DNA from: a virus
Lineage: Duplodnaviria; Caudoviricetes
Direction: 5' to 3' (one strand)
Virus record (IMG/VR): IMGVR_UViG_3300021399_000098
Length of the DNA stretch: 64,000 bases
Shown: piece after piece, positions 7,226-63,572 of the stretch
Layout of the letters: every line of letters begins with the position of its first letter
How positions within the stretch are numbered: position 1 is the stretch's first letter
Notes under the pieces: model-generated
Told to the model about the DNA's origin: nothing
The model's input: the letters and a program-made list of their open reading frames with translations, nothing else
The model's database searches: none
Made by a program: the position numbers and the translations under genes

Positions 7226-7684
7226 ATGGAATTAACTGAAGAGTACCTTCATAAAGTGATTATGGAGTCTATTGGCGTTGTGCCAAACATATATAACGTT
7301 ATGTGGCTTTTCAACGAATATAACAATGCTTATTTCGATGGAGAGCTGCCCCTTCCTAGGTTTGTACTAGACCACGATAGAAGGTCACTAGGGGAATTCA
7401 GATGCTACTTTGATGAGTATGGTGAGGTTGATGACCCAGAAATTATGATAAGTGACTGTTATGAGTACACCGAAGAAAAGCTAAGAGACGTTTTAGTTCA
7501 TGAAATGATTCACTACTATTTAGCCTATACACAAGAAGACATTCGTATAAGTCACGGAAGTGCATTTCAAAGGATGGCCAATGACTTTAATTCAAGATAT
7601 GGAATGAACATAACAAAAACCGTAGATGTAACTGGTATGGGAACAGTAAAATACGGCAATTGGTTTACTAGAATGTTTCAGTAA
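7226..7684 (+). CDS. SprT-like zinc metalloprotease with a degenerate N-terminal LTE...IMES tag
   Basis: YNNAYFDGELP, VLVHEMIHY (HExxH), HGSAFQRMA. Confidence 0.85.
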   Translation: MELTEEYLHKVIMESIGVVPNIYNVMWLFNEYNNAYFDGELPLPRFVLDHDRRSLGEFRCYFDEYGEVDDPEIMISDCYEYTEEKLRDVLVHEMIHYYLAYTQEDIRISHGSAFQRMANDFNSRYGMNITKTVDVTGMGTVKYGNWFTRMFQ

Positions 7685-7697
7685 TAACAATTTAACA

Positions 7698-8363
7698 ATG
7701 GAAAAACAAATGGTAAATATAGACAAAATCATAACGGAAGTAATTAACAACAACGTAAACAACAACATATTTACGACTTTACAAGCGCACATCAATCCAA
7801 GTGGAAATAATAACTTATTAACTTGGATGAATTACTTGAAAAACGCCTTTATGAGTAACTCAAATTCTCAAGAAATAAATACGTTCTTGATGGAGCTTTA
7901 CAATTTCACAAATATGTTGGTTCAAGCGATACAAAGATGTGTCGCTAGGCAAAGTCTTAATGAAGCATTTTATGGGTCTTATGGCGGCTTTGACTTGGGT
8001 CAGTATGGAATGAAAACCCCATCCATCATAGGTCAAACCGCTAATGCATTTATGAATGGCTTCAACGGCCCTAGTTTAGCAGACAGAATACAAAGGCTTA
8101 GAGACAAATTCAGTGACAGACAGTCAAACACGCCACAGCAGCAAGGAAGGGGGCAAGGTAGGAGTTTTGTTCCACCAAAAAATACAAAACTACAAGTAAT
8201 ACTAACACAATATTTCCCACTTGTGCAAAGGAAATACAATGAATTGAATAGGAAATACAACAATGCGGTGGCACTTTTAAATCCTAGCTCACCACAATAC
8301 ATAATCGGAGAAGTGAATCAAATTATATCAGAATTAGGAAACGCTCAAAGGAATACCCCTTGA
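7698..8363 (+). CDS. Hypothetical protein
   Basis: 221-aa ORF followed by a hairpin terminator. Confidence 0.7.
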   Translation: MEKQMVNIDKIITEVINNNVNNNIFTTLQAHINPSGNNNLLTWMNYLKNAFMSNSNSQEINTFLMELYNFTNMLVQAIQRCVARQSLNEAFYGSYGGFDLGQYGMKTPSIIGQTANAFMNGFNGPSLADRIQRLRDKFSDRQSNTPQQQGRGQGRSFVPPKNTKLQVILTQYFPLVQRKYNELNRKYNNAVALLNPSSPQYIIGEVNQIISELGNAQRNTP

Positions 8364-8370
8364 GCGTTTC
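8338..8370. terminator. Hairpin terminator between convergent genes
   Basis: gaaacgctcaa...ttgagcgtttc, 11-bp stem. Confidence 0.6.
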
Positions 8371-8375
8371 TTTAA

Positions 8376-8621
8376 TTATAGCAGTTCATCTAATGCATCA
8401 TCACCAGTTAAACCTTGGCTTAAATTAGTGAATGAAGAAATATTCGTTGTAGATTTGGATGAAGTGTTGTTCAATGCGTTATTTTTTGCTTCCATGTATT
8501 CATTATACTTGTGGATATAATACTTTCTATCCCTTATTGGCATTTTATTCAAAACATCGAATGGTATTTTGATAAAATTATGACAAGCGAACAACTCATC
8601 CTTAAGGTTTTGCTCATACAT
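8376..8621 (-). CDS. Baseplate hub assembly / tail chaperone protein (T4 gp51-like)
   Basis: MYEQNLKDELFACHNFIKIPFDVLNKMPIRDRKYYI; ATG overlaps the stop of the upstream gene. Confidence 0.55.
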   Translation of the reverse strand: MYEQNLKDELFACHNFIKIPFDVLNKMPIRDRKYYIHKYNEYMEAKNNALNNTSSKSTTNISSFTNLSQGLTGDDALDELL

Positions 8622-9930: not shown

Positions 9931-9933
9931 AAC

Positions 9934-10551: not shown

Positions 10552-10563
10552 GATAAATACTGT

Positions 10564-11950: not shown

Positions 11951-11999
11951 AACTTTGTTACATTTTATTGTATTATTTTATTATTGAAATAAATATGCA

Positions 12000-12773: not shown

Positions 12774-12876
12774 AAAAGTTTTTATAAAAAATAAAAAAAA
12801 GTTAAAAAAAGAAAACATTTTTGCCCAAATAATTTTTTTTTCATATATTTGCAAAAACTGTAAAATAAAAAGTAAT

Positions 12877-15905: not shown

Positions 15906-17564
15906 ATGGTAGATAAAAAAGCAAAATTCATTGAAAAGTCTAAAAATAGGCATGGTGATAAATACGACTATTCTAAAGTGGAATATATTGATAGTTTAAC
16001 AAAAGTATGTATCATATGCCCCATTCATGGCGAATTTTGGCAAACTCCACAAGGTCATGTAAGGGGTCAAGGTTGCCCAAAATGTGCAAACATCAAAAGA
16101 GGTGATACATTTAGGTCTGATGGTGATACATTCATTAAACGTGCAACTGTTTTGCATGATGGTAAATATATATACGATAAAGACTCTTACATTAATGCAA
16201 TGACAAAAGTTCCAATACTTTGCTTAAAGCACGGAACATTCTGGATGACTCCAATGAATCATCTACTAGGTCAAGGTTGTCCTAAATGCAGTGGTAGGGG
16301 GTTAAACACTGAAGAGGTTATAGAACTGTTTAAGGAGAAACATGGCGATAGCTATGATTATTCCAAAGTTGTATTTACTAAAATGCATGAAAAGGTTTGT
16401 ATAATATGCAAAGAACATGGTGAATTCTGGCAAACCCCTAGCAAGCATCTTTTAGGTCAAGGATGCCCAAAATGCAGTGGTATTAAAAAAGCAAAAGAAA
16501 GGACATTAACAACAAATGATTTTATTGAAAAATCTTCGAAAATTCACAACAATAAATACGTTTATGACAAAACAAAATATAAAGGTACATATGAATCGCT
16601 TACAATAACTTGCCCCATTCACGGAGATTTTACGCAAAGGGCGAATGACCACCTCAATGGTCACGGATGCCCAATATGCGGCAACAATATGTCGCTTGCT
16701 GAGAAAGAAATTGAAGATTATGTTAAATCTTTTGGTGTTAAAACTGAAACTAAAATTAGAGGCATACTAAGCAATAATAAAGAAATTGATATATTAATAC
16801 CAGAATTAAACATAGGAATTGAATATAATGGCTTAAAATGGCACTCTGATGAATTTAAAGATAAAAATTATCATCTAAATAAAACAGAAGAATGTAAAAA
16901 ATTAGGAATACGACTTGTTCATATCTTTGAAGATGAATGGATGAATAAAAAAGAAATTGTTAAAAGCATTATACGCAATATAATCGGTAAAACTGAAAAT
17001 AAAATATATGCTAGAAAATGTATCATTCAAAATGTTAATGACAATGAGAAAAAAGAATTTTTAGAAAAAAATCATATACAAGGAAATATTAATTCACAAA
17101 TAAATTTAGGACTATATCACGATGGTGAACTAGTATCACTAATGTGCATCGGTAAACCTAGAATCAATTTAGGCAGAAAAACATCATTAGAAAATGAATA
17201 TGAACTCTTACGTTTTTGTAATAAACTTAATACAAATATTGTTGGCGGTGCAAGTAAACTATTTAAATATTTTATAACAAACTATAGTCCAACGCTAATA
17301 ACATCCTACTGCGATTATAGATGGAGCATTGGTAATATGTATGAAGCATTGGGATTTACTTTATCCCATCTTTCACAGCCAAACTACTATTACATAATTG
17401 GCAATAATAGAAAAAATAGATTTAAATATAGAAAATCAGAATTAATTAAAGAAGGTTTTGACCCAGAAAAATCAGAAAAAGAAATAATGGAAGAAAGAGG
17501 AATACACCGAATATACGATTGTGGGTCATTGGTATATATATGGAAAAATGAGGATAGAAACTAA
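15906..17564 (+). CDS. Putative homing endonuclease (four Cys/His zinc repeats plus a Hef-like PD-(D/E)xK nuclease)
   Basis: 4x YDYSK..C..HG.F....H..G.GCP.C; EIDILIP..IGIEYNGLKWHS; HIFEDEW; YELLRFC; RIYDCG. Confidence 0.8.
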   Translation: MVDKKAKFIEKSKNRHGDKYDYSKVEYIDSLTKVCIICPIHGEFWQTPQGHVRGQGCPKCANIKRGDTFRSDGDTFIKRATVLHDGKYIYDKDSYINAMTKVPILCLKHGTFWMTPMNHLLGQGCPKCSGRGLNTEEVIELFKEKHGDSYDYSKVVFTKMHEKVCIICKEHGEFWQTPSKHLLGQGCPKCSGIKKAKERTLTTNDFIEKSSKIHNNKYVYDKTKYKGTYESLTITCPIHGDFTQRANDHLNGHGCPICGNNMSLAEKEIEDYVKSFGVKTETKIRGILSNNKEIDILIPELNIGIEYNGLKWHSDEFKDKNYHLNKTEECKKLGIRLVHIFEDEWMNKKEIVKSIIRNIIGKTENKIYARKCIIQNVNDNEKKEFLEKNHIQGNINSQINLGLYHDGELVSLMCIGKPRINLGRKTSLENEYELLRFCNKLNTNIVGGASKLFKYFITNYSPTLITSYCDYRWSIGNMYEALGFTLSHLSQPNYYYIIGNNRKNRFKYRKSELIKEGFDPEKSEKEIMEERGIHRIYDCGSLVYIWKNEDRN

Positions 17565-18070: not shown

Positions 18071-18222
18071 AAGAAATGCACGAATCTGCAAGACTAATAG
18101 AAATCTTGCATATTTTTTGTATCTTTTTTTTACTATACAATTCCATAACAGAGTATATTACGTCTTGGTATACACATCATAATACAGCATAAAAAAAGAG
18201 CAACCACTGCTGATTACCCTTT

Positions 18223-18654
18223 TTATGCACGATATACATGTATGTTTTGAAGGTGGAATTTTGAAAGTCTTGGGTAATTTTCTTTTGACCATATTACCAC
18301 AACAAAATCATTATTTCTAAACGAATGTGAATCGTCTTTTTCGTCAAATCCCAAATAATTCATTCCATATTTTTGTTCTAGTAATTCTTTAATAAAATTA
18401 AAGTCAAGAACAGCTCCTTTGTCATATATATTATAAAACCCATATTTATCTTTTAAATCTTTTACAATACTAGATTCCAAATCATCTTCATCTTCTGCCA
18501 TACATGCAGCATTTAACTCATCGTCATCTAAAATTCCTGTAATGTTTCTAATTTGCTTATTTGTTAAATCTATTTCGCTCAATATTCTATTTACCGACTC
18601 TTTTACAATTCTATGAAGGTCTCCTTCTGTTAATCTTATGAGTTTCTTATTCAT
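18223..18654 (-). CDS. Hypothetical protein with N-terminal IRLTEGDLHRIVKESV tag
   Basis: Start refined to MNKKLIRLTEGDL; motif shared with the genes at 27088, 57222 and 63144. Confidence 0.75.
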   Translation of the reverse strand: MNKKLIRLTEGDLHRIVKESVNRILSEIDLTNKQIRNITGILDDDELNAACMAEDEDDLESSIVKDLKDKYGFYNIYDKGAVLDFNFIKELLEQKYGMNYLGFDEKDDSHSFRNNDFVVVIWSKENYPRLSKFHLQNIHVYRA

Positions 18655-18771
18655 ATTATATATACATATTTGATTCATTATTTTTAAATAATATATAAGC
18701 AAATGCAGAAAAATGCAGTAATTTATGACTGCATTTGCATAGTGTTTACTACCAATAAGTATATAAGTTCA

Positions 18772-19840: not shown

Positions 19841-20887
19841 TTAAATATCATCGAATGAAACACCCTCTATTTTCTTTTTTAATTGTTCCATATTATTACA
19901 AACATTATCATTTGTGTAAAGTCCATCAAACTTTTTGCTAGACTTATAATAAGGTACTGTATTCTTTTTTGGGATATAATATAACAATTTTATCCCTTTT
20001 TCTTTACATAACTTATTTTTATACAAGTCTCTATGCAAATTTTTCTCAAATTCTTCCTCAGCCCATTTTTCTCCTCTCCCAGCAAAATCTACTGATTTAA
20101 AATGCTGTCTCCCTTGACATTCTATTGCAACATTTTCTTTAACAAGATAAAAATCAAGTGAATTTTTATTATTAGTCTTATCGTATCTATATTGACTAAT
20201 AAAATCAATTTTATTTTCTAATAGCCAGTTAAAGACCTCTTTTTCTAACTTACTTTGAGCACAATGAGGACACCCCCTACCTCTTAAATGGTTATTTGGA
20301 GTAACATAAAATATCCCATGTTTTTTACATATCACTGGTATTTTTGTTCTATTATTGGAATATTTAGTAAACAATGAATAATCATATAAATCTCCATAAA
20401 CATTTTTAAATTGTTCTTTAACATTATCCACTGTTAATCTCCCTCTACTATCCCATATTCTTTTACATTTACATTTAGGACAACCTTGACCACGAATGTG
20501 GTCTACTGGTCTTTGCCAGAATTCACCGTGTTCTACACCATTTTCGTCTTTTTCATGGCAAATTATGCATACATTATTATGTGTCCCATTTACTTCAGAC
20601 TTTGAATAATCATACCTCCCATCATGAACTTTTTTTGCTTCATTGATAAATGATTCAGTTGTTCTCTTGGCATTTCCACTACAATATGGACATCCATGTT
20701 TTCTATTTATGTGATGGTCAAAATCTTGATAAAAAACACCATGTTCAATACCATTTTTATCTTTTTCGTGACACACAATTGGATATTTTACTCTGTTATT
20801 TTTGTACTCATGGATTAACGAATAATCATATTTGTGATTATGAATTTCATTTGCTTTGTCTATTACTTTTTCTAAATTACATTTCAT
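19841..20887 (-). CDS. Putative homing endonuclease (three Cys/His repeats plus a PD-(D/E)xK domain) ending in a copy of the sheath C-terminus
   Basis: 3x HG.F....H...GCP.C; SKLEKEV, LDFYL..VAIECQGRQHF; C-terminus EGVSFDDI*. Confidence 0.8.
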   Translation of the reverse strand: MKCNLEKVIDKANEIHNHKYDYSLIHEYKNNRVKYPIVCHEKDKNGIEHGVFYQDFDHHINRKHGCPYCSGNAKRTTESFINEAKKVHDGRYDYSKSEVNGTHNNVCIICHEKDENGVEHGEFWQRPVDHIRGQGCPKCKCKRIWDSRGRLTVDNVKEQFKNVYGDLYDYSLFTKYSNNRTKIPVICKKHGIFYVTPNNHLRGRGCPHCAQSKLEKEVFNWLLENKIDFISQYRYDKTNNKNSLDFYLVKENVAIECQGRQHFKSVDFAGRGEKWAEEEFEKNLHRDLYKNKLCKEKGIKLLYYIPKKNTVPYYKSSKKFDGLYTNDNVCNNMEQLKKKIEGVSFDDI

Positions 20888-21049: not shown

Positions 21050-24000
21050 TTAAATATCGTCAAAAGAGACCCCCTCTGGGGATAAAATAAAATCGATTGT
21101 TATGTACTCAAGAGCATTGTAAGGCTTGAAGTAAATCTTACATGGAAGCTCTCTTCTCTCTCTTGACTCGATTGAGTCGTTAACCTCGATTCTGTAGTCT
21201 GAGATACCTCTGTTGCCTCTGATGCTATCCAAAATTGGAGTTACAGTTGAAATGAATGACTGCTTAACTGTTGCATCATTTGGTTCAAAGATTAAACCGA
21301 TACATGAAATTGCAATAAGCTTTCTCAACCTTAGAAGCAATCTACGAACTGCGATTCTATTAAGTTGTGACTCATTAATCTGCAAGTTCTTTTGACCCCA
21401 AATCTTTGGACCGTCTTGCGCAAAGGTCTTAACTGGGTTAATTCTACCATCGTACAATACATCCTCGTCAGCCAACTTAGTGATGAAGTGTGCTCTTACG
21501 CAATCAACATTACCACGCTCAATACCTGCTGGTGCGAACCAAGGCCATGCTGTGTTATCAGTCTGTGCGAAGTTTCTAACTGCATCCTTTGTAGGTGGTA
21601 AGTAAATGTATTGATTGTTATCAACATCCAAATACTTAACCCAAGGATAATATGTACATGAATAGTTAGAATCAATTTCAGTGTCCTCTAGGTTATAAAC
21701 TGCATCCTCTGGTGTATACATTTCATCAACGAAATCATCTGCACCACTTGGCTTATCAGGAGTTGTTATAACATAGATACTGTCAGCTCTTTCCTCTTCA
21801 ATCATTTCGATTGCCTCTTCTACAAGAAGCTTCTGATTTACATAGTCAATACCTGGAGTTGCAAATACGTTAATATCTGTTGCCTCTGGTGTTGCGAACT
21901 GTCTAATACCGCTCAAGTAAGCATACCAGTCAGATGTGATACCATTCTGATTCAACTGTAGAAGCTCAGGATTCATAATCTTACTGAATGCATAACCCTC
22001 ACCACTGTTTTGGTTGATATAACCTCTGTACTGTGACATCTTGAACTTGTCAGTGTTGGTTCTCTGGTCTCTGTAAACATCCCATCCATCGAATCCTCCA
22101 TAGAAGAATACAGTGAATTTACGAAGATTTACATACTCATAGATTGAACCATACATGTTCTCTTCCTTGTCAATGATAGGTGCTCTGTCAAGAACTTGTG
22201 TTCTAGCATTAGTTGAAACGCTATCGAATACATATCCATACTCTCCATCAACAGTGACAGAACCACTTGATACACCACCATTGGCATAATCCAAACGGCT
22301 ATCTAGATGGAAGCCATGAGAAAGGAATTCAGGTTCATTAATATAAGTCATATTACCCTTGAATGTGAAGTTATCAATGTCAACTCCTACCCATGAAGAA
22401 AGTCCAAAGTATTGCTTTCTATTCTTAATATCTTCATCGAAGTCTCTATTGTACTTGATTGTTGGGAATGAAACTCCTTCCAATGCATCACCTGCGATTG
22501 GAGTACCACTGTACATTGGAATTGGATAACCCAAGAAGCCTGCTGGTACTGAATTCTTAGCAGCCAATGTATCATTTACCTCAACAGTGATGAACTTTGA
22601 CTTAGACTCATATACACCATCAAATGAACCAATCTTGAATGCTATGTAATTTGAATCACCTGGAACCATTGAGCATCTTCCAAACTTCTCAAGTGGGATG
22701 ATTGATTCATCAAGGTCATCAATTCTACGTACTACAACGTCAAATACGCCCTCATCAGGTCTAATGTTCTCAATAGATACCTTAACCTCGTAGTTAGCAT
22801 TGTCACCGTCAGAAATGGTGTGGAATCTGAACAACTTGTTAACCTCAACTTTCTCCAAGTCACCCTTCAAGTTAGAAACAATCCAAGGAGTAGAAGCATA
22901 TCTGTAAGCTGACTTATAATCATTCATATCAAACTTAACATAAGTAACATTAGATTCATCGTCATCCATTCTATAATATAAGCCGTCTGCCTTGTTGTAA
23001 ACCAATGTTGAAGTGTTACTAGTGTTGCCTTTAGTGCCACCATACTTCAAGTTACCGTAGTAGTTAACCTTATCTGATTCACTAGTAGCACTAGAAGTTC
23101 CGCTAGTAACGCTATCTGCGGTATAATAAGTATATAAATACTGTCTCTTACTGTCTTGTGTGGTATATTGCTTTACAGTATAAATCTGTCCAACCTTAAT
23201 TGCTTCTTGAACAACATCATTAGCTACATCTGTCCAAGCTGAAGAAGAAGAAACTAACTCGTATCCTGTTGGGATTGTTGGACTATCGATTTCCTTCTTT
23301 GGTCTATTACTCCAAGTTAAATATTCGGTTGTGGCTGTTGTCAATCCACTTGTTTCTGAAGTATTTCCTTTCCATTGATAGTTCCATTTTATCATCTTTT
23401 CTTCATCAGCACATTGTACTCCTGTAGTAGCAGTTTGGTCTAGAACATATGCATCCTTAAGTATTTGTGGATTGTTGCTGCTAAAGATATAAGGTGTACA
23501 TAAGATACCCTTGTCGCTTGCATTATTATCTGCCAAGTATCTCATACCAACGTACTTTCTAGTAAGTGCCGTATGAGGAATTGTCATTAATGCACTAATT
23601 GGCTGATGCCAACAATAGTCAGCGATTGCATATGCTTGAACACCAACTAATGTGCTATCAATCTGATTAAGACTAAGTGCTGCAATACCTTGCTCAAGTG
23701 CAACGTCATAAAGAGACTCGACATAGATTGGTGAATCACCATTATCTGCCTTTGTACCCAAAACCTTTAAGATATATTCCTTATCCTCTGGGTTTAAACT
23801 CACTGCATATTCAAAATAACCACTATCACCACTTGAAGGTGTGGTATTGTCCGCATGAGGGCCTTTTATACCTTTAATCTTGAATCTTCCTCTGTTGGTC
23901 TGTGAAATTGACCATGAGCCAGCACCGCCAGACATGCTATGACCATCGCACTCATTACCACTGTCAGTCATTGGAATGTATTCTGAAATCGTCAATGCAC

Positions 24001-24529: not shown

Positions 24530-24597
24530 AATTCTTATAATATTTTAATTTTATTAGTTATTTTTCCTATATATAAATATTTAGTTTATCTCAAAGA

Positions 24598-27055: not shown

Positions 27056-27067
27056 ATAAATATTTAT
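27056..27067. promoter_or_regulatory. Palindromic ATAAATATTTAT between divergent genes (candidate bidirectional late promoter)
   Basis: An identical palindrome lies at 59731-59742, also between divergent genes. Confidence 0.5.
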
Positions 27068-27087: not shown

Positions 27088-27522
27088 ATGAAAAAAATTA
27101 TTAGACTTACTGAAAGTGATTTACATAACATTGTCAAAAAATCTGTAAACAAAATACTTAGAGAAAGCTTTGATAGATGGACTGAAAAAGGTTCATGCTA
27201 TATATCAGACAAATTCTTAGAGGCTGTTGCGCAAGTTGTAGATGAAGATGTTTACGATTCACTAAACGCATACGTATCAAATAACCCAAAAGCATTTTAC
27301 CTCATAGGCGTATTCGATGTGGGTTATGATGACGAAACTGGTTATGGAGACAAAAACTCTCTAGTATATGAACTAAGAGATGTTAAAGGAAAAGACAAGG
27401 CAATGCAATACCTTATGAACTTCCAAACTGACACACAGACATTGAAAACTATTATACAAATATTTAACAATGTGGTCATAAACCTTGATGAGACTGATTT
27501 TGGTTTAGGCGAAGAATATTAA
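27088..27522 (+). CDS. Hypothetical protein with N-terminal IRLTESDLHNIVKKSV tag
   Basis: Shared motif; own promoter motif and terminator. Confidence 0.8.
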   Translation: MKKIIRLTESDLHNIVKKSVNKILRESFDRWTEKGSCYISDKFLEAVAQVVDEDVYDSLNAYVSNNPKAFYLIGVFDVGYDDETGYGDKNSLVYELRDVKGKDKAMQYLMNFQTDTQTLKTIIQIFNNVVINLDETDFGLGEEY

Positions 27523-38601: not shown

Positions 38602-38687
38602 AATTTTTAAAAATAGTTTAATTAAGTTATTATTTTATTTTTAATACTAAATTGTTAATAATAAATATCTATTACTCATAATTAAAA

Positions 38688-44793: not shown

Positions 44794-47700
44794 ATGAGAG
44801 AAATTACAACCGAAGTTGTTAACACCTTTCTCAACGGACATGACCCAATGGAACACATCATTTCAATAGAATGTGGATTTGACGAAGATAGGGTTAGCAT
44901 TATTTATGTAAACGAAAAAGGTGAAAAAAGGGTCAAATTAGATGACTTCAAGCCATTTGTTTGGGTTAAGCACAGTGCTGCGATAAGGTTGTTTGGTGGA
45001 AACAAAACAACACTCAGGCGTGAGCTTAAACGTTTTGGCATTACAATTAAAAAGCTTACAACATCAAACGATGACGGAGAGGAACATGAACGCCTAGAAA
45101 GTGGCTATAAGTACCTTTTCTATGCTACAAGGAGAATGAGCAATCAGAATTTCCAAAACTTTTTTAAAATTGGTGGCGTTCCAATCCATGAAAGGAAAAA
45201 GAAAGATGACCCAGCCCAAAACGGAAACAGAGAGTTTATGGCAGTGACCCCTGTTGAGCAATATATGATTGCCACTGGACGTAGACTCTTTAAAGGTTAC
45301 GACACTTACAACCAACTCACACGATTCATATTTGACTTGGAAACGCAAGGTCTTAATCCTAAGATACATAGGATTGAGCAAATAGGTATTCACACCAATA
45401 AAGGATATGATAAGGTGATTTCAGTTGAAGGTAAAACCAAAGAAGAGTTAGACAGAAACGAAATTGCCGCAATTAAAGAATTCTTGGACATATTGTCAAG
45501 TCTGAAGCCAGATACAGTCGTTGGGCATAACTCTGAAAACTTTGACTGGAATTTTATGATTGTTCGTTGTGAACAACTTGGTGTTGATTTTTCAGAGCTT
45601 TCTTTAAACTATTTCAAACACGCCATTTACAAAAAGTCAAAGGAATCTGTTCTCAAGCTTGGTGGCGAAGTGGAATATTATTATCCAACAATCATGTGGG
45701 GTCACAACGTACTTGATTCATTGCACGCTGCAAGAAGAGCGCAAGCAATTGATTCAAACATGAAATCTTCAAACTTGAAATATGTAACAAAATACCTAAA
45801 CTTGAAGAAACAAAACCGTGTTTATGTTCCAGGTGATAAAATCACATCAACTTGGGCGATTCAAGATAAAGTATTTGGATTTTGTGAAGATGATGGTGAT
45901 TGGTACAAAGTCACAGATAAAAGGCCACTACTTAAAGGCTATAACCTTGTAAGTGGTAGATACATCGTTGAAAGATACCTCTTGGATGACTTATGGGAAA
46001 CTGATAAAGTTGAAGATAGGTTGAATGAGTCTAACTTCTTGGTAGGTAAGATGCTACCGACTAGCTTTACAAGAGCGTGTACAATGGGTACGGCAGGAAT
46101 TTGGAAACTTATAATGCTTTCATGGTGTTATGAAAATGACTTGGCAATCCCAGCAGCAGCACCAAATAAACGTTTCACAGGTGGTCTTTCACGTCTTCTT
46201 AAAACAGGATTCGTTGACCGTATCGTGAAGCTTGACTACAACTCACTTTATCCGTCAGTTATTCTAACATGGCACGTTTCAACTCCAATTGACGTTATGA
46301 ACGTTATGCTTTCATTCCTTGAATATATTCTAACACAACGTGAGAAATATAAAGGATTAAAAGCTGAAGCAGGAGAAAAGGCCGACAGTCTTAAGGAAAA
46401 ACTTAAAGAGTGTGACGGTGAGGAAAAAAAAGAAATCGAAGAAAAAATCAAGTTTTGGAAAGCTGAAAAAAGTGGTAATGATAAGAAACAATTACCTCTT
46501 AAGATTTTAGCAAACTCATTCTTCGGTGGTTATGGCTCACCTAACGTATTCCCATTCGGTGATATACTTGCAGCAGAAAAAACAACTTGTATCAGCAGAA
46601 TGTCACTAAGACTTATGATTAGCCATTTCAAGTCAATAGGCTATGAGCCAATTGTGGGTGATAGTGTTACATACGACACACCTATAATCGTTAGAGGTGA
46701 AGATAAGAGAATTGATATTATACCGATATGTGATATATTCAATAATGACGAAGCCGTTGAATTCGATAATGAACAATACAGAGACTTCTCAAGAAAGAAT
46801 TATGATGTTCTTACAAGGGATGGGTGGAAGCCTATTGAATATATATACAAGCATAAAACAAACAAGCAATTAAAGAGAGTAGAAACAAAGAATGGCCTAG
46901 TTGATTGTACGGAAGACCACTCGTTGTTTGATAATAATGGTAATGAGGTAAAACCTTCTACACTTACTCGTGGAAATAAAATCGAAATATATACCAAAGA
47001 CATTGACTATTTCGCAAGCTCAACAGTAACAGACAGAGAAGCTTGGCTATTTGGTTTCTTTATGGCTGATGGCAGTTCTGTATACTGTGATAGAACTCAA
47101 AAATACTATTCTAAACGAAAAGGCGAATGGGTAATACATAATGGCAAAAGAGCCAATTGGAAAATATCTAATAAATCTCTTGATAGATTAAATAAAGCAA
47201 AGGAGATATTAGAAGATAGTTTCTTCTTGAAAGCTTCCATTAAAGACCATAGAGCATCATCTAATGTTTACAACTTAGTTGTTGAAAATACAGATAATGC
47301 GAAATTTTTCTCTAATAATTTCTACACGTCATACAGATACAAGAAAGTCCCAGAGTTTATATTAAATGCTAGGAAAGAAGTTAAGAAAGCATTCTTAGAT
47401 GGATTCTGTTGTGGCGATGGACAAAACGATACAATTGATGAATGCATAGAATTTGGTCAGAAATCAAAAGTTGCTATGGCTGGACTTTATTTCTTGATGA
47501 AAGAACTTGGATACAATTTCCGTTGTCACAATAGAAATGACAAGCAAGAATTCATTAGTTTTAGACTTAGAAATCATCGTGGAAGCCTATTGAACGAAAA
47601 CTATTCAGAGAAAAAAGAAGATGAAGTATGGAATTGCGAAGACATTACTAGCAAATCAGAATACGTATATGATATTTCTGCTGATGGAACATTTGTTAAT

Positions 47701-49170
47701 GCCCTTGGCATGATTGTATGCCATAATACAGATGGTTTTAACTTCCAAATGCCTACTGAGGACAAATTCAGATATACAAAGGAACATCCATATATCTCAA
47801 ATGGTCTTGGGCGTAACTCTATTAAAGGTAAGGAATATACACGTGTTGATGCTGACGTGGCAGAATTCGAGGACATCTATCTGTCACAAGCATATAACGG
47901 TGGTATAAACAAAATGGGATTAGGAATAGACGAATACTGTGATGCTTGTATACAGTTCGCAAGAAAGAACTATGCTGACTTAATGCCAGACGGTAAAACA
48001 AAGAAAGTTGGTAATACCATCAAATCAAGAAAGATGAGCGGCTATCTTGAGAAATTCATTGATGAGGGTGTTGACCTATTGCTTCGTGGTAACGGATATA
48101 AGTTCTTGTCCAACTATTACGATTACATAGACAAGATTTACAATTATCAAATTCCGATTAAAGACATTGCTTCAAAGGGCAATATCAAAAAGTCAATTAA
48201 AGATTATATTGCTGATTGTAACACGCTCACCAAAGCTGGTTCAAAGAAATCTCGTCAAGCTTGGTATGAATTGGTTATAAAAGAAAATGTTGAAGTAAAT
48301 GTCAGTGACACAATATATTACATCAACACTGGCACAAAGAAAGGACATACAGACGTTAAACGTGTAACACATTTCTATTATACCCTAAATGGAGAAAAAA
48401 CAGAAATAACAAAGGAAGTTGAAAAGTTATACAAAAATCAAGACAAAGCAGCACCTAATTATGTAAAGAAAACTAGATTGGAACTTGCGAAAGAAACTTA
48501 TGGAAATAGTGCGTTTGACGAAGATGAAATTATACTTAACTGTAAATTAGTTCCAAACGAAATACTTGAAAAGGAAGAGGATGTGCTTTGCAGTGATTAT
48601 GAAGGAATGGAATATAATGTTGAAAAATACATTGACCAATTCAATAAACGAATAACTCCTTTGTTGGTTTGTTTCCATCCAGACATAAGAAATAAGATAT
48701 TGGTTACGAATCCAAAAGACAGACTATTCTTCACAGAAGAACAGTCAAAACTTGTAAGCGGTTATCCAAACAAGGAAGAAGACCAAGACACATTTGAGGC
48801 GTTGATGACACCTGAAAGGAAAGAAATAGAGTTTTGGCTTAAGGTAAATGAAGTTCCACCATTTGTAAAGGAATGTGGTATTGATTGGAATGCTTTGGTA
48901 GAAAAACATAAGAAAGATATTGAATCAGAACAAAATGAACTTTACAACGAGGAAAATCAGAAATATTTGGATGCGTTGGATGCAATGACGAATGATGAAG
49001 TTGTGGAATTTGAAGAGGAAGGTAAATTACCAACAGCAATTGCGTCATTGGTAACTCTTGGTGCTGACATGAGACTATATTTCAAAAAAATACCTGACAA
49101 GACACCATCAACTGGAGGTTATGTCTTCGATGACATCACTTACAACTATGCCGAAACAATTGCAGAATAA
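44794..49170 (+). CDS. polB: Family B DNA polymerase containing an intein
   Basis: Exo motifs FDLETQG and GHNSENFD; motif A DYNSLYPS; motif B KILANSFFG; motif C GD/TDG split by the intein. Confidence 0.95.
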   Translation: MREITTEVVNTFLNGHDPMEHIISIECGFDEDRVSIIYVNEKGEKRVKLDDFKPFVWVKHSAAIRLFGGNKTTLRRELKRFGITIKKLTTSNDDGEEHERLESGYKYLFYATRRMSNQNFQNFFKIGGVPIHERKKKDDPAQNGNREFMAVTPVEQYMIATGRRLFKGYDTYNQLTRFIFDLETQGLNPKIHRIEQIGIHTNKGYDKVISVEGKTKEELDRNEIAAIKEFLDILSSLKPDTVVGHNSENFDWNFMIVRCEQLGVDFSELSLNYFKHAIYKKSKESVLKLGGEVEYYYPTIMWGHNVLDSLHAARRAQAIDSNMKSSNLKYVTKYLNLKKQNRVYVPGDKITSTWAIQDKVFGFCEDDGDWYKVTDKRPLLKGYNLVSGRYIVERYLLDDLWETDKVEDRLNESNFLVGKMLPTSFTRACTMGTAGIWKLIMLSWCYENDLAIPAAAPNKRFTGGLSRLLKTGFVDRIVKLDYNSLYPSVILTWHVSTPIDVMNVMLSFLEYILTQREKYKGLKAEAGEKADSLKEKLKECDGEEKKEIEEKIKFWKAEKSGNDKKQLPLKILANSFFGGYGSPNVFPFGDILAAEKTTCISRMSLRLMISHFKSIGYEPIVGDSVTYDTPIIVRGEDKRIDIIPICDIFNNDEAVEFDNEQYRDFSRKNYDVLTRDGWKPIEYIYKHKTNKQLKRVETKNGLVDCTEDHSLFDNNGNEVKPSTLTRGNKIEIYTKDIDYFASSTVTDREAWLFGFFMADGSSVYCDRTQKYYSKRKGEWVIHNGKRANWKISNKSLDRLNKAKEILEDSFFLKASIKDHRASSNVYNLVVENTDNAKFFSNNFYTSYRYKKVPEFILNARKEVKKAFLDGFCCGDGQNDTIDECIEFGQKSKVAMAGLYFLMKELGYNFRCHNRNDKQEFISFRLRNHRGSLLNENYSEKKEDEVWNCEDITSKSEYVYDISADGTFVNALGMIVCHNTDGFNFQMPTEDKFRYTKEHPYISNGLGRNSIKGKEYTRVDADVAEFEDIYLSQAYNGGINKMGLGIDEYCDACIQFARKNYADLMPDGKTKKVGNTIKSRKMSGYLEKFIDEGVDLLLRGNGYKFLSNYYDYIDKIYNYQIPIKDIASKGNIKKSIKDYIADCNTLTKAGSKKSRQAWYELVIKENVEVNVSDTIYYINTGTKKGHTDVKRVTHFYYTLNGEKTEITKEVEKLYKNQDKAAPNYVKKTRLELAKETYGNSAFDEDEIILNCKLVPNEILEKEEDVLCSDYEGMEYNVEKYIDQFNKRITPLLVCFHPDIRNKILVTNPKDRLFFTEEQSKLVSGYPNKEEDQDTFEALMTPERKEIEFWLKVNEVPPFVKECGIDWNALVEKHKKDIESEQNELYNEENQKYLDALDAMTNDEVVEFEEEGKLPTAIASLVTLGADMRLYFKKIPDKTPSTGGYVFDDITYNYAETIAE
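46663..47727 (+). mobile_element. Intein (355 aa) with a LAGLIDADG homing endonuclease in PolB motif C
   Basis: GD|SVTYDTPII...YVYDIS...CHN|TDG; LFGFFMADG and FLDGFCCGDG blocks. Confidence 0.93.
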
Positions 49171-56748: not shown

Positions 56749-56862
56749 TGTTACTTGTTATTTTTGAATTTATTTTTTAATAATAAATATTGAAAGTTTT
56801 TAACTTGTTTCCGTTTTCATACATATTTATAATGTAAAATATATATAAACCCTACAATTTTT

Positions 56863-57221: not shown

Positions 57222-57722
57222 TTATTTTTGATATTTTTCAACTCCCTTTTGAAAACCATAATTATATCCAGCCTCATTATTATGACTTCTAAGAGGGTTT
57301 GGCGTATTTAAACTATCCTTATAACCTTTCCAAGCTTCATCATCAGCTCTTCCAATAATTTTGGAATTTTCAGCCCTATCTTTAATACCCATATTAGTTC
57401 TATACCCCTTTGCTGCTCTCCTACCTTTAACTGCATTAAGGGCAAAATTACCACGAGGCGTATCACCAATTTCACTCAGTATTCTGTTTACAGACTCTTT
57501 AACAATTCTATGTAAGTCTGACTCTGTTAATCTTATAATGGTTTGTTCCTCAACTTTTTCTGGAAGTCCTTTATGCTTTGTTTCAGCAAAATCTTTAACA
57601 TCATTCATTGACATTCCATTTGCAGCTTTCTTTATCTTGCTGCTTGGATTCTTCATTTCACCTTTCTTATAGGCATCAACCATACCGAAGAATCTCTGTT
57701 GTGCTTTACTCTTACTTGGCAT
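57222..57722 (-). CDS. DUF3008-like N-terminus plus internal IRLTESDLHRIVKESV tag
   Basis: MPSKSKAQQRFFG..DFAETKHKGLPEKV; tag at 57468-57539. Confidence 0.75.
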   Translation of the reverse strand: MPSKSKAQQRFFGMVDAYKKGEMKNPSSKIKKAANGMSMNDVKDFAETKHKGLPEKVEEQTIIRLTESDLHRIVKESVNRILSEIGDTPRGNFALNAVKGRRAAKGYRTNMGIKDRAENSKIIGRADDEAWKGYKDSLNTPNPLRSHNNEAGYNYGFQKGVEKYQK

Positions 57723-57723
57723 A

Positions 57724-59706
57724 TTAATTAGTATTTAATTTATTATTTTCGTATTTGTAGTTATTTTCTATAATTAATTGCTCCATGAAACAATTATAAA
57801 TCTTGAATGACTTAAGATAACCGATGAAAGTACCAGCAAAACTCTTCTCTAGAGGGTAAACCCTAGTTGGGTCTAGCATATAGTTATACTGTATCGTCTC
57901 AGCCAATCCTTGCGTACCTCCACCTATTGAAATGTTGTAAGGAACGCCCTCTTGCTTCTCATATAAGTCATTCAAAGCTTTTGGACTGATTCTAGGTAAT
58001 TCCTCTGTGATATATCTAAGCTTTCCGTTTACATAGAACATGAGCTTCATCTTGTCACCGCCCAAGAACGTTATTCTAACATTAACAGTAGTCCATTCAC
58101 AATCTGGTATCACGTTTTCAAATGAATAACCTTCCATTATCTTGGTCTTGTCATCGCCTTCCTTGTCACAGTCAATCGTAAGCAGTCTATAGCCTATTTC
58201 ACCATTATCTGTGATTCTAAACGCCAAAGCATTGTTATAGATGTCATAGTATGGATTATAGTAATTGATGTCCTTATCCCTAAGTTCGTCAATGTTGGCA
58301 ATGGTATATCCAGTCTTTGTACGGTTCATCAATATGAAAAGATTACCTTTGAAATGGTTTTTCCTACCCATGTACATAAATTCAGTACCTTCAACCCAAT
58401 TGGCAATCGTCTTGCCGTTTTTAGTTCTGTCAAACATCATAAACTTGTTGTCAGTGTAGAAATAGTACCAATTTGCCTCTTTCAAGTTGAAACCATTGTC
58501 AGTGTAATATTCAAAGTCTGATATGTCCAATTCTGGCTCAACATAGTCTTGACAGTCAACCGTGTCTTCTAGTCCATCCCATCCTCCAATATATCCGTCT
58601 CCAAAAGGGTCATTCCAGTCGATTTCAGACGTTTCTGACGTGGTTGTGGACTTGTATACCTTCTTGTACTTAATAGGGCATCCACAGCCCACAAAATAAG
58701 GCTGTAGGGTATAATCCTTTTCAACCTTGCCACAGCACCAACCCATTGTTATATGGTCTTCATCTTCATCTATCAATTTCGGCTGTTTCCTAACTTCAAT
58801 TTCAAGGTAATCTGACATGTCCTCCCAATCACAATAATCATCAGCATATAACTCATCGTCATAGTAGTTGAAATTGGTATAATCGTCAATGTCTAGGAAA
58901 TCACCGACATAGTTAAGGCTGACATCGCTGAAATTGCCTATGATATGAGTTTTCTTGTCTATACCGCCATCTTCAACGAAATCATCCATTCCCAACTGGT
59001 AACATTCCTCAAGCCCATATTGGTCATTTTCATCATATAGATAAACCCACTTGTTCTCAGCCCTAGTTCCGATATAGAAGAAAATGCCCTTATTTTCAGG
59101 ATATTTGTCATTCAACGTTTTTGTTGACTCAGCTTCTAAATCACACTTTTTCAAAGTGAACTCAAAATAATACACATCACCGTCATCAAACTTGGATGGC
59201 AAAACTTGGTACTTGTCACATTCTGTCTTGAAAAAGCCTTGGTAGAAACCACCATTTAACTTTACATAACCATCTTCAACATGCAACGGATATTCGTATA
59301 ACAAAGTATTGCCACTAACGGCATGTAGCTTGAGCCTATTATCATCAGCTTCAATCTTCAACGTGTTTGACTTGAACAAGTCAACAAAATCCTTATTGCT
59401 TATTCTGTCTTTCCTGTAGGTGAAAAGACCGTTGTCAACTCCAGTGTATGTTATATTATATAATGTATGTTCCAATGATATGGATTTATCCCATGTATAA
59501 TCGTTCTTTCCGTAAATCCAATTATCCTCACCAATACAGTCACTATCAGACAAATCTATGTACGATATAAGGCACTTATCATACAACTCATTTGGATTGC
59601 TTCCATAATACCCATAAGAGTCCTTATTAACAAAGAAATCCCAATACTCATCCTTGTTAAATCTAAATTTTAGCCTATGATAGTTATTTACCTTTAAATT
59701 TGCCAT
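57724..59706 (-). CDS. Large acidic structural protein, LamG/concanavalin-like
   Basis: LNGGFYQGFF, GIFFYIGTRAENK, LMFYVNGKL, ISIGGGTQGL. Confidence 0.55.
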   Translation of the reverse strand: MANLKVNNYHRLKFRFNKDEYWDFFVNKDSYGYYGSNPNELYDKCLISYIDLSDSDCIGEDNWIYGKNDYTWDKSISLEHTLYNITYTGVDNGLFTYRKDRISNKDFVDLFKSNTLKIEADDNRLKLHAVSGNTLLYEYPLHVEDGYVKLNGGFYQGFFKTECDKYQVLPSKFDDGDVYYFEFTLKKCDLEAESTKTLNDKYPENKGIFFYIGTRAENKWVYLYDENDQYGLEECYQLGMDDFVEDGGIDKKTHIIGNFSDVSLNYVGDFLDIDDYTNFNYYDDELYADDYCDWEDMSDYLEIEVRKQPKLIDEDEDHITMGWCCGKVEKDYTLQPYFVGCGCPIKYKKVYKSTTTSETSEIDWNDPFGDGYIGGWDGLEDTVDCQDYVEPELDISDFEYYTDNGFNLKEANWYYFYTDNKFMMFDRTKNGKTIANWVEGTEFMYMGRKNHFKGNLFILMNRTKTGYTIANIDELRDKDINYYNPYYDIYNNALAFRITDNGEIGYRLLTIDCDKEGDDKTKIMEGYSFENVIPDCEWTTVNVRITFLGGDKMKLMFYVNGKLRYITEELPRISPKALNDLYEKQEGVPYNISIGGGTQGLAETIQYNYMLDPTRVYPLEKSFAGTFIGYLKSFKIYNCFMEQLIIENNYKYENNKLNTN

Positions 59707-59764
59707 GTAATCTTCATTATTTTGTCATAAATAAATATTTATTTAATAATAAAACAAATAGATA

Positions 59765-60016
59765 ATGAAAATAATTAGTTTAAACGAATCACAGTTTGGA
59801 AGACTGTTCGAAGGAATTACTGATGGAGACTTCGGTGATAATCCTGTTCCAGACAGATTTGGGGCTGAAGTTACTGACCAAGCAAAACTCCACGAGCCAA
59901 ATGCTTCAACAGATGATACAGAAAATTCAGACCCAACACAAGTTCCTAAAACACCTAAAATGCACACTAGCCAACACTGGGGTGTTACTACTAGAAGTGC
60001 ATCAAATACAATTTAA
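59765..60016 (+). CDS. Small hypothetical protein (MKIISLNESQF tag-like N-terminus)
   Basis: First gene of a plus-strand cluster after the palindromic motif. Confidence 0.6.
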   Translation: MKIISLNESQFGRLFEGITDGDFGDNPVPDRFGAEVTDQAKLHEPNASTDDTENSDPTQVPKTPKMHTSQHWGVTTRSASNTI

Positions 60017-60021
60017 AAGCT

Positions 60022-61168: not shown

Positions 61169-61221
61169 CCAAACTACTATTTATAATAAAAAATAAAATA
61201 TTTAAAAATTTATAGAGAAAT

Positions 61222-61650: not shown

Positions 61651-61670
61651 TTAAATCTGATTAAAATAGT

Positions 61671-62444
61671 ATGGGCTTAACATTATCAGACATCTTGGCC
61701 AATATCATTAAAGAAGATGCTTCAAACGGCATCAACTCATATGATACTGACATGAAAATAAAATATGCCATCGCAAACAGAAAATATATTTCACTGTATT
61801 ATGATGACAAAAAAGGAAAAATGATTGGTTCTAAAGGAAACCCAAAAGGTTTCAGAAGAATCATTCCGTATTGTTATGGCTCAAGGAAAGGAAGACCAGC
61901 ATTAAGATGTTTTCATGTCTTTAAGACAAACACGAAGAGAGGCCCACTTAAGTGGAAATTCTTCTATGTTGACAACATAAGCAACTTGAGGGTATATGAA
62001 AACTGGCCTTCATTCACACAAAAAGACATCCCACAGAACTTCAACCCAAACGGTGATAAGCATATGGATGAAATATATGCAATCGTTGACTTTGGGTATG
62101 AATCACCATTGAACAAAGCAAAAACTGAGTTTAAACAACAAAATCCAAAAGGAAGTGTCAAAAACGTTAACTCATTATCTAATCTAACACAATACAAAGA
62201 CCCTACTGCAAAATTCAAAAACAACAAGACAAACTACGGTGCAGTTAAAACAAACGTTGATAGACGTAATGCAGAAATGTCACCAAACAATAGGGAAGAA
62301 TATTGGAAAGATTATGACAGAGCTAAAGAGGAAATACAGCAAAACAACAACGGTCCTGTCAACAGTTACGATGAAAACGATTACGATGTAAATGACGTTG
62401 ATTTTGACGAAAATAATTTCAAAACAAATACAAACAGAAGATAA
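61671..62444 (+). CDS. WYL-domain protein
   Basis: AIANRKYISLYY..GFRRIIPYCYG..LRCF..WKFFYVDNI. Confidence 0.7.
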   Translation: MGLTLSDILANIIKEDASNGINSYDTDMKIKYAIANRKYISLYYDDKKGKMIGSKGNPKGFRRIIPYCYGSRKGRPALRCFHVFKTNTKRGPLKWKFFYVDNISNLRVYENWPSFTQKDIPQNFNPNGDKHMDEIYAIVDFGYESPLNKAKTEFKQQNPKGSVKNVNSLSNLTQYKDPTAKFKNNKTNYGAVKTNVDRRNAEMSPNNREEYWKDYDRAKEEIQQNNNGPVNSYDENDYDVNDVDFDENNFKTNTNRR

Positions 62445-62445
62445 A

Positions 62446-63117
62446 ATGGCAAAACAAGTAGACCCAAATAAAATAGCTAATTTACAGTCGGCAATGTCTA
62501 GGGCATCAAAGTTAATGAGATTGGAGTCCAATGGAACTCTAGATAAAATTGCAAAAGCACATAAGGGAGAGATTAATGAGTCATTAGGTGGTGATGGTTC
62601 AATGACAACAGAAAGCATGATGACTACGGCTAGAAACAGAAACACTCAAGCACCAATCGCAGGAGGGCAAATGCTAGGCGCAGGAGCAGGAAATGTTCCA
62701 TCAATCATCAGAGAATCATTTGCTAATAACCCAATTGATGAAAGAGCATTATACGCTGGTCTTGGCGATGGTAGAGACTTGTCATTCCTAAATGAGTCAA
62801 TGCCTACCCAACAAGTACAAGCACCTTCATCACAAGAGATAAGACAAATCATTAATGAAAGTGCTCCGCAAACAATGCAAGTTCCACAACAAATAGACTA
62901 CCCTATGATTAGGACAATAGTTGAAGAAATAGTTAGGAAATATGCAGTGTCACTTAAAAACAAAATACTGACAGAAGACAAGCAAAACATGAATGAGGTC
63001 AATACCGTAATGCTCGGAAAATCATTCAAGTTCCTTGCGAAAAACGGTGACATATACGAAGCAAAACTTACCAAAGTTGGTAACATAAATGACAAAAAAA
63101 AGAGCGTTAATGAATAA
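62446..63117 (+). CDS. Hypothetical protein with repeated (I/L)NE(S) motifs
   Basis: Start refined to MAKQVDP; followed by a terminator at about 63094-63128. Confidence 0.7.
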   Translation: MAKQVDPNKIANLQSAMSRASKLMRLESNGTLDKIAKAHKGEINESLGGDGSMTTESMMTTARNRNTQAPIAGGQMLGAGAGNVPSIIRESFANNPIDERALYAGLGDGRDLSFLNESMPTQQVQAPSSQEIRQIINESAPQTMQVPQQIDYPMIRTIVEEIVRKYAVSLKNKILTEDKQNMNEVNTVMLGKSFKFLAKNGDIYEAKLTKVGNINDKKKSVNE

Positions 63118-63143
63118 CGCTCTTTTTTATTTTTAGGTAATAA

Positions 63144-63572
63144 TTAGATTTGTACAATTAGAAGAATAGTATTTCTATCCATCTTAACTCTCTTATATTC
63201 TTTCCAATTTAGCAATTCTGCCAAAGCATATAATTGCGATAATTTTAGGTGATTCTTACCAAACTGTAAAGGCATTCTAAGATATTTAGAAGTCATTTCA
63301 TGTCCATTAAGCATCGGATTTGCACTAATTACCCCATCTTTATCTAGTGTGTCAAATGAGTCTCCCATTCTTGTTAATTTTGAATTAAGGGCATCTAAAT
63401 CCTCTTGTGTTAGACCTATTTTTATAGTTTGACTATAATGATGCCCCTCATCATCCCAATTGCTAGGATAACTAACAGAAGGCATACTTTCTTCCTTTAA
63501 TACTCTTTTTACTGATTCCTTCACGATTCTATGAAGGTCTGATTCTGTTAGTCTAATTAATTTCTTATCCAT
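63144..63572 (-). CDS. Hypothetical protein with N-terminal IRLTESDLHRIVKESV tag
   Basis: MDKKLIRLTESDLHRIVKESVKRVLKEE; TATTTATA motif at 63631-63638. Confidence 0.8.
   Translation of the reverse strand: MDKKLIRLTESDLHRIVKESVKRVLKEESMPSVSYPSNWDDEGHHYSQTIKIGLTQEDLDALNSKLTRMGDSFDTLDKDGVISANPMLNGHEMTSKYLRMPLQFGKNHLKLSQLYALAELLNWKEYKRVKMDRNTILLIVQI

Follow-up and report, generated by a model that had tools for sequence, protein, structure and literature searches.

A portable peptide tag on unrelated proteins of T4-like jumbo phages, a candidate leader for prohead targeting and proteolytic removal

We analysed a stretch of viral DNA of 64,000 nt (IMG/VR record IMGVR_UViG_3300021399_000098; Duplodnaviria, Caudoviricetes), referred to here at its full length as the window, in which four open reading frames (ORFs) carry one and the same peptide of about 26 residues, hereafter the tag. 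A preliminary description of this DNA had reported near-identical peptides in four otherwise unrelated ORFs, one copy being internal, and had read them as a modular signal for loading interchangeable proteins into the phage head. The observation of the four copies was borne out. A fuzzy six-frame search of the window found the four copies and no others, a hidden Markov model (HMM) of the tag matched them with E values of 1e-16 to 1e-18 (among 1595 six-frame segments), and the remaining parts of the four proteins, which we call cargo, were mutually unrelated, the best pairwise BLASTP E value being 0.11.

The four tagged proteins are 142-166 amino acids (aa) long, with one cargo apiece. P0001 (18223..18654, minus strand), whose start was set at the Met of MNKKL (position 18654), has its tag at 18574-18654 and an acidic cargo of 116 aa, with an isoelectric point (pI) of 4.7, that matches no known family. 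P0002 (27088..27522, plus strand; tag at 27088-27165, cargo of 118 aa with pI 4.1) is a single-gene unit on the strand opposite to its neighbours, and a search of the ESM Atlas with it returned solely unnamed clusters below 0.8. P0003 (57222..57722, minus strand) is the ORF with the internal copy: a DUF3008 domain (residues 4-57) is followed by the tag (57471-57542) and by a basic cargo of 82 aa. It closes an operon whose first gene, encoding 660 aa, lies at 57724-59706, the two genes being co-oriented and abutting. P0004 (63144..63572, minus strand) has its tag at 63492-63572. When the tagged window proteins were compared with Pfam and PHROGs, nothing was found on the tag, and the only domain match was the DUF3008 of P0003. 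Strong intrinsic terminators end all four genes, at 18190..18224 (minus strand) for P0001, 27528..27563 (plus strand) for P0002, 57184..57224 (minus strand) for P0003 and 63093..63128 (minus strand) for P0004.

Degenerate versions of the tag had also been proposed in front of five enzymes of the window, and this held for one of them at its N-terminus. The gene concerned (7226..7684, plus strand) encodes, according to Pfam, a SprT-like metalloprotease; it is preceded at 7205-7212 by the octamer ATATTTAT, considered below, and has a partial, diverged tag at 7232-7273, in which the first 16-20 residues of the protein match HMM positions 7-20 and the xR[IV]LxE end is missing. With a strict HMM, built from 97 distinct public copies, this N-terminus was the best match that is not itself a copy (E 0.48), and with an HMM broadened by iteration it reached E 0.002. 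The tags proposed at 59765 (E 33) and in the WYL frame (E 82) were indistinguishable from chance with the strict HMM, and none of the proposed ART-like, PRTase-HAD, WYL and 59765 tags was among the 14 best matches (E up to 3.2) of the broadened one, hence we consider these four to be at chance level. As to the enzyme names themselves, Pfam agreed with SprT-like and HAD, gave a weak match for PRTase (E 0.09) and returned nothing for ART or WYL.

The DNA of the four window tags differs at 10-22 of 66 positions and, for each pair, there are 7-10 synonymous and 1-6 non-synonymous codon differences, with both TCA and AGT used for serine. In 125 distinct tag DNAs from related loci the entropy was 1.36 bits at the third codon position, 0.71 at the first and 0.41 at the second, and both serine and several leucine codon families were in use. 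The earlier remark that the copies differ mainly at synonymous sites is hence correct. Because synonymous sites vary and the peptide is retained, an explanation at the DNA or RNA level falls short, and we rejected any that stays at that level only: selection acts on the peptide, not on the DNA.

The consensus of the tag is MNKKLIRLTESDLHRIVKESVxR[IV]LxE, with 12 positions more than 90% conserved. We carried out the count and the survey of fused domains that had been suggested at the outset, and they gave thousands of tagged clusters and few fused Pfam domains. Precisely, a profile scan of 1.84 billion cluster representatives (50% identity) returned 5186 clusters with E<=1e-3, 1261 of them with E<=1e-10, and a word-seeded search returned tagged proteins of 78-249 aa (1006) and of 250-2000 aa (220), of which hardly any had a Pfam domain. 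There were at least 211 confirmed tag matches in IMG/VR, on contigs of up to 413 kb; the IMG/VR loci analysed here were the best 80 of these matches, corresponding to 78 distinct loci. Ten large contigs were scanned whole, of which nine had 7-17 tag matches each and the tenth, 65% complete, had two. The tag is N-terminal in most cases, with a Met within 8 residues upstream for 130 of 140 tags (89 fetched loci). It had no Pfam, PHROG or significant PDB profile match; a tblastn search of 50,697 GenBank phage records with the tag gave no match, and a literature search with substrings of it found no paper.

The window covers a portion of a large myovirus, with a gp18-like tail sheath protein of 1159 aa, a tape-measure protein, a family-B DNA polymerase and several fibre-like proteins. 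Its sheath is 80% identical to that of a 412-kb contig, G001, with which its gene order is largely syntenic. The related jumbo phages that bear the tag are 280-413 kb long; a capsid protein of the Gp23 family (PF07068) was found in all seven large tag-bearing contigs that span the head region, and a head protease of family Peptidase_S77 (T4 gp21) in all four tag-bearing contigs tested. A candidate exception, contig G005, taken for a tag-bearing phage devoid of T4 head genes, was rejected, as 210 of its 445 genes are syntenic with G001 and it lacks head genes because the contig stops just before the head and sheath region. The window phage thus belongs to a jumbo clade of the T4 superfamily. 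Bacterial genomes contributed 47 loci with tag copies, almost all from rumen or gut Prevotellaceae or other Bacteroidales, which we take as the probable host range of the clade; this indicates a giant T4-like phage that presumably infects rumen Prevotella.

Tagged genes share an upstream element with the structural genes of these phages. The octamer ATATTTAT occurs at 24 sites in the window, against 8.8 +/- 3.0 expected, with no shuffle attaining 24. For 19 of these sites a gene in the same orientation starts 21-67 nt further on; such genes include those for the sheath and for four fibre-like proteins, the SprT-like gene, P0002 and P0004, as well as the operon closed by P0003. We considered as a reference the site at 24573..24580 (minus strand), 51 nt upstream of the sheath gene (21050-24529), by which the box is tied to the expression of structural genes. 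The boxes of the tagged genes are at 27060..27067 (plus strand), 28 nt upstream of P0002; at 59731..59738 (minus strand), 32 nt upstream of the 660-aa gene that heads the P0003 operon; and at 63632..63639 (minus strand), 67 nt upstream of P0004. P0001 is preceded by a block at 18684..18738 (minus strand) in which the terminator hairpin of the preceding gene (~18699-18738) is followed by TATATATTATTTA, a variant of the promoter box, and by a leader that is homologous to the conserved one of the tag family. Further ATATTTAT sites, orientation-specific as well, are found at 38661-38668 and 56783-56790 (minus strand). The view of these genes as stand-alone cassettes with a candidate late motif was therefore sustained by the boxes of P0002, P0004 and the P0003 operon and by the four terminators.

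In G001 the octamer precedes 55 of 554 genes, including those for the terminase, the portal, a scaffold-like acidic protein, the major capsid protein (MCP), the sheath, fibres and a tape-measure-like protein, with no replication gene among the listed box-bearing genes of at least 300 aa. The shorter motif TATTTAT is upstream of 68 of 115 tagged genes in other loci, mostly 25-40 nt from the ATG, and often within a conserved 45-nt leader that follows a conserved terminator hairpin. As the box is common to structural genes, we read it as a putative structural ('late') promoter element. Three further observations concern the same region. The octamer plus A is ATATTTATA, whose complementary strand, TATAAATAT, contains the T4 late box TATAAATA; the coding strand here reads ATATTTAT, the T4-like late box being on the complement. 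The conserved terminator hairpin, AATGCAGTCAnAAATnnCTGCATTTT, stands directly before the promoter box in many cassettes, including that at 18699-18738 (minus strand) of the window. The 7-mer TGCAGTC is enriched 17-fold upstream of tags.

The end of the tag resembles a known processing site. T4 gp21, the head protease, cleaves after Glu in L/I-X-E (PMC9026906), and the 10-residue capsid-targeting sequence (CTS) of T4 internal proteins targets them to the prohead core and is then removed at an L/I-X-E site (PMC9026906; PMC3012670); T-even internal proteins are diverse, the CTS being their only common element (PMC3012670). With Asp at the CTS position that corresponds to the last Glu of the tag, T4 proteins are still targeted but no longer processed (PMC9026906). 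In the logo of the tag, P3 is L in 82% and I in 13% of the copies (95% together), P2 ranks among the most variable positions and 96% of the copies have E at P1, after which conservation drops from 4.0 bits at the P1 Glu to 0.9 bits at the next residue. This logo fits the gp21 cleavage motif, which makes the tag end a predicted cleavage site. Two further Phi-x-E triplets, L7-T8-E9 and V16-K17-E18, lie within the tag. The MCP homologues have (I/L)xE and then A just before the conserved mature part, kept even where x changes.

The gene neighbourhood points to the same protease. The head module of G001 runs from terminase through portal, a 764-aa protein, two tagged genes, protease and a scaffold-like gene to the MCP gene, and one tagged gene is immediately downstream of the protease gene. 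In T4, the prohead-core genes 67 and 68 are at the position that matches these tagged genes beside the protease. A tagged gene lies at most 7 kb from the MCP gene in six of seven genomes, a proximity that we count as weak support because the genomes are related.

Cargo that must survive an (L/I)xE protease within the prohead should avoid that motif, and we counted it in 226 dereplicated cargo families (22,214 residues; from 482 segments), with per-sequence shuffles giving the expected values. There were 156 occurrences of [LI]xE against 198 expected (ratio 0.79, z -3.6), with 0 of 300 shuffles as low. In the same cargo [LI]xD, [LI]xN, [LI]xK, [LI]xR and [LI]xQ were enriched 1.19-1.33 and [LI]E and [LI]xxE were neutral, and in untagged proteins of the same phages [LI]xE was the most enriched of the patterns (1.27-1.28, and 1.37 in a polarity-matched subset). 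The avoidance is thus specific in residue and in spacing, and we regard it as a moderate argument that is independent of the others.

The tag is also the point at which proteins of this kind are recombined. P0003 and its G001 orthologue (394875-395354) are 92% identical through the DUF3008 part, have similar tags and are unrelated from the residue after the last Glu of the tag, with the DUF3008-tag-cargo architecture kept, hence the cargo is exchanged exactly at the tag end. The tagged genes of the window are located where synteny with G001 breaks, the slots of P0002 and P0004 being at such breaks or occupied in G001 by other genes. Of about 125 tag loci, 26 (20 of which come from bacterial genomes) have a full-length transposase of the IS1595 family of insertion sequences (IS) just after the tagged gene and convergent with it, and across these loci the tag and the transposase are conserved and the cargo differs. 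Terminal repeats of the GGCAAT type, 1.5-2.65 kb apart, enclose the tagged gene and the transposase in at least nine loci, usually together with the promoter box. There was no transposase match in the window, none of whose four tagged genes is linked to IS1595.

Some of these loci deserve mention in their own right. An IS1595-family element (1.5-2.65 kb, with inverted repeats of the GGCAATAACAT type) with a tagged passenger under the late promoter is found at L002:2884-4402, at L090, L092, L105, L109 and L112 and at others, and a TAnnTTTG box of the Bacteroidetes type goes with its transposase. At L109 another tag gene holds the element, inserted directly after codon 7. We examined whether the IS end was there the tag itself, as the repeat includes the first codons of the tag, and rejected this, since the true repeat (GGCAAT...) abuts a second, truncated tag gene, meaning that the IS was inserted into a tag. 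The chromosome of Segatella bryantii DSM 11371 (L094:2940-3350) has a cassette in which the phage promoter, leader and tag are all complete; it sits between genes for a glycoside hydrolase and a beta-propeller lipoprotein, and the remnant of a transposase comes after it. Other cultured hosts with single copies of the cassette (promoter box, leader, tag) are Prevotella sp. MA2016 (L090) and Prevotella sp. tf2-5 (L109). Such chromosomal copies should be silent until infection by a phage of the clade.

As for the cargo, a Pfam domain was found on about 10% of 150 long tagged proteins, with cREC_REC and LPD3 on five each and HicA, HNH and CTD11 of ABC-3C on one apiece; these are domains of conflict systems. 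LPD3 derives from phage polyvalent proteins that are predicted to be packaged into the capsid (PMC5512222). The expectation that the cargo would consist of recognisable enzymes was for the most part not supported, about 90% of the long tagged proteins being without any Pfam domain. The distribution of cargo pI has two modes, 228 of 615 segments being below pI 5, and many tags of multi-tag proteins are separated by acidic low-complexity linkers. Many tagged proteins are acidic or basic low-complexity chains with two to four tags, and these look more like prohead-core components than like effectors. Three public proteins, P0267, P0271 and P0253, are acidic, have two to four tags, one of them at the extreme C-terminus, and resemble multiply cleaved prohead-core proteins.

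In the AlphaFold2 model of P0004, which has a mean predicted local distance difference test (pLDDT) score of 66, the tag is helical over residues 10-26, and a disordered linker (30-45) leads from it to a small alpha/beta domain. A Foldseek search with the model found no match in the PDB or in BFVD. The model of the two-tag protein P0267 was of low confidence, with both tags helical and any packing of one tag on the other unreadable. We also considered three other roles for such a peptide and rejected each. By inspection, the tag has no hydrophobic stretch and hence is not a secretion signal. For the leader of a ribosomally synthesised and post-translationally modified peptide, the cargo is too large (60-300 aa) and there is no linked maturase. 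For a ribbon-helix-helix half-site (strand plus helix), there is no second conserved helix, and AlphaFold2 gave residues 1-9 as coil.

Some other features of the window lie outside this system. The ORF at 31038-32006 (minus strand), which adjoins fibre-like genes and which by eye we take to be reverse-transcriptase-like, is a possible diversity-generating retroelement. The DNA polymerase gene (44794-49170, plus strand) encodes 1458 aa, of which the PolB profile covers the first ~616 only; the remainder, not explained by PolB, may represent an inserted segment, an intein or an additional domain. The genes at 15906-17564 (plus strand) and 19841-20887 (minus strand) are homing-endonuclease-like, with KYDYS as a recurrent motif, and their G001 counterparts have the ATATTTAT box. 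A megablast search of GenBank phages with a 5-kb gene of the window gave no match.

We consider it probable that the tag is a prohead-targeting leader cut off by a gp21-type protease, that is, the T4 CTS principle in a new form that is far larger and unrelated in sequence. The tag would be an amphipathic helix on a flexible linker, acting as a portable leader. A tagged protein would be expressed late, from the structural-gene promoter, and its leader would dock it into the scaffolding core of a T4-type prohead. The gp21-family head protease would then remove the leader at the terminal (L/I)-x-E, perhaps cutting at LTE and VKE too, and the cargo would stay in the capsid, where it would serve as an internal or core protein or await ejection together with the genome. 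Seen as DNA, the unit consists of terminator hairpin, putative late promoter, leader and tag, and forms a conserved adaptor behind which cargo is exchanged; in some relatives it is also carried as a passenger of an IS1595-family element. The peptide and the selection on it, its distribution, the promoter box, the T4-type head genes of the relatives and the avoidance of the motif by the cargo are results of the analysis, from which we infer late timing, docking, cleavage and delivery. The portable, T4-CTS-like leader of the preliminary description is in this respect supported by the head genes of the relatives, the promoter box, the (L/I)xE end, the synteny with the protease gene and the motif avoidance; most of the degenerate tags and the idea of a cargo made up mainly of recognisable enzymes found no support, and injection of the cargo would be a further supposition. 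The tagged proteins may be delivered cargo or a disposable prohead core, and the acidic multi-tag proteins suggest that both kinds exist.

Several facts weigh against a cleavable targeting leader. The tag has 26 residues against 10 in the T4 CTS (2.5 times longer), has no detectable sequence similarity to it, and its helix is conserved on both faces, which is more than a simple propeptide needs. About one-third of the sampled tagged proteins, in a sample skewed towards multi-tag proteins, bear two or three tags, and one up to four; some copies are at the extreme C-terminus. Multi-tag and C-terminal copies are not explained by a purely N-terminal leader and fit a multivalent core-assembly element. 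Single tag copies occur in Prevotella and Segatella chromosomes, where they cannot serve a resident T4-like phage. We infer 'late' timing solely from a box that structural genes have in common, and the avoidance of [LI]xE is moderate in size. Moreover, the head module lies outside the window, hence the link from tag to head goes via the relatives, through the 80% sheath identity and the synteny with G001.

A part of these facts would be accommodated if the tag were chiefly a building block that associates with itself in the prohead core or scaffold, rather than a loader of effectors. The tagged proteins, above all the acidic multi-tag ones, would then be the core itself and would be cleaved to peptides and expelled like T4 gp22, gp67 and gp68, with little reaching the next host. 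The many proteins with two to four tags, acidic linkers and C-terminal tags, the bimodal cargo pI and the two tagged genes in a gp67/gp68-like position by the protease gene would suit such a role, the conservation of both helix faces suits homotypic packing, and the three Phi-x-E triplets would chop the tag into peptides of at most 10 residues. However, some cargo has folded or conflict-type domains (cREC_REC, LPD3, HicA, HNH and the SprT-like protein of the window), the avoidance of [LI]xE implies cargo meant to survive the protease, and 7-17 different copies per genome with rapid turnover are unlike an essential core; we therefore hold a purely core role to be unlikely. It is quite unlikely that the tag is a helix through which proteins dock on, or oligomerise with, a partner unrelated to the capsid (a host target, a phage hub or a chaperone), the tagged proteins then acting in the cytoplasm of the producing cell: although its modelling as an isolated amphipathic helix on a flexible linker, its very high conservation on all faces, its internal and C-terminal positions and its copies in bacterial chromosomes would agree with this, the (L/I)xE end with its abrupt conservation boundary, the specific avoidance of [LI]xE by the cargo, the clustering with protease and MCP genes and the restriction to a clade with T4-type heads would all be left unexplained.

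The same protease link bears on the idea that the tag is a degron or regulatory handle, by which a cytoplasmic protease would destroy or activate late proteins at a set time. The tag is short, terminal, portable and strongly conserved, with a protease-like motif at its end, as a degron might be, but no candidate cytoplasmic protease is linked to it, and both the synteny with the head module and the agreement with the specificity of gp21 speak for the prohead protease, which renders this idea very improbable. Finally, we give hardly any credence to the idea that the tag block is mainly either an adaptor in the DNA, used in recombination or IS1595 transposition, or an element for translation initiation, with the peptide as a by-product. 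It would account for the conservation of the non-coding leader and the upstream terminator hairpin, for the swap of cargo at the tag boundary and for the convergent IS1595 transposases with inverted repeats around both genes; against it are the free third codon positions with the peptide kept and both serine codon families in use, the internal tags without a leader, and the fact that most tagged genes, including all four in the window, have no adjacent transposase. A bolder extension of the targeting-leader reading, which we think doubtful, is that the tag is a 'Velcro' helix assembling with itself or with the scaffold, that a whole clade of rumen jumbo phages uses it for a fast-evolving set of thousands of capsid-delivered proteins swapped by recombination, that IS1595 elements captured the cassette of late promoter and leader, and that the chromosomal copies are induced by an infecting phage alone and loaded into its capsids. 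If this were true, the phage-loaded chromosomal copies would be either hitch-hiking elements or a Trojan-horse defence of the host.

If the targeting-leader reading is true, no other natural system of capsid targeting known would come near this one in size, as a single 26-residue peptide would serve thousands of unrelated proteins, and it would show a signal spread by means of a recombination adaptor and an IS passenger. The sequence of the tag would then give direct access to the 'injected proteome' of jumbo phages of gut and rumen that have not been cultured, which would likely be a reservoir of unannotated anti-defence and host-takeover factors, and would supply a defined packaging and cleavage signal for engineering protein delivery by Bacteroidota phages. 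If the core-assembly variant alone were true, the tag would still reveal how the prohead core is organised in a large and hitherto unstudied branch of the T4-like phages.

The closest known systems are compared as follows. The CTS of T4 internal proteins, whose source is reportedly Mullaney and Black in 1996, is present in IPI, IPII and IPIII and, together with the propeptide of Alt, is likewise a short N-terminal peptide that is the sole element common to unrelated late proteins. Like it, the tag ends in the gp21 motif L/I-x-E, and the tag-bearing relatives, like T4, have a gp21-type protease, a gp23-type capsid protein and a scaffold, with polymorphic cargo loci. The differences are in scale and in arrangement: the tag has 7-17 copies per genome and thousands of cargo clusters, whereas the T4 CTS has 3-4 copies; unlike the CTS, the tag is often multi-copy or C-terminal, with some copies being IS1595 passengers or in host chromosomes; and packaging and cleavage, known for the T4 CTS, are predicted for the tag.

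The peptides that load cargo into encapsulins or bacterial microcompartments are also short and portable and target diverse cargo into a shell. In microcompartments they form an amphipathic helix; encapsulin shells have the HK97 fold, and encapsulin peptides are usually C-terminal and rich in Gly and Ser. Unlike the tag, for which removal is proposed, these peptides are not known to be taken off by a protease, and no encapsulin or microcompartment shell genes are present here.

In phiKZ, 201phi2-1 and SPN3US, the propeptides of inner-body and ejection proteins are cut after Glu by the gp175/gp245 protease, a diverged gp21 homologue (PMC9026906). As in that group, we are dealing with jumbo phages that would have many head-internal proteins, as proposed here, and with redundant cleavage sites in the propeptide. 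Their motif is S/A-x-E, to which the tag, with L or I at P3 in 95% of the copies, does not conform, and unlike the tag their propeptides are not one conserved portable sequence.

The polyvalent proteins (Iyer et al. 2017, PMC5512222) are a means of bringing in many conflict-related domains together with the DNA, as the tagged proteins would be, and processing into units is predicted for both. LPD3 and zincin-type peptidase domains occur both in polyvalent proteins and in the tagged set. A polyvalent protein, however, is one giant chain with 2-15 unrelated effector domains, whereas here the cargo is mostly in separate small genes, each with its own leader.

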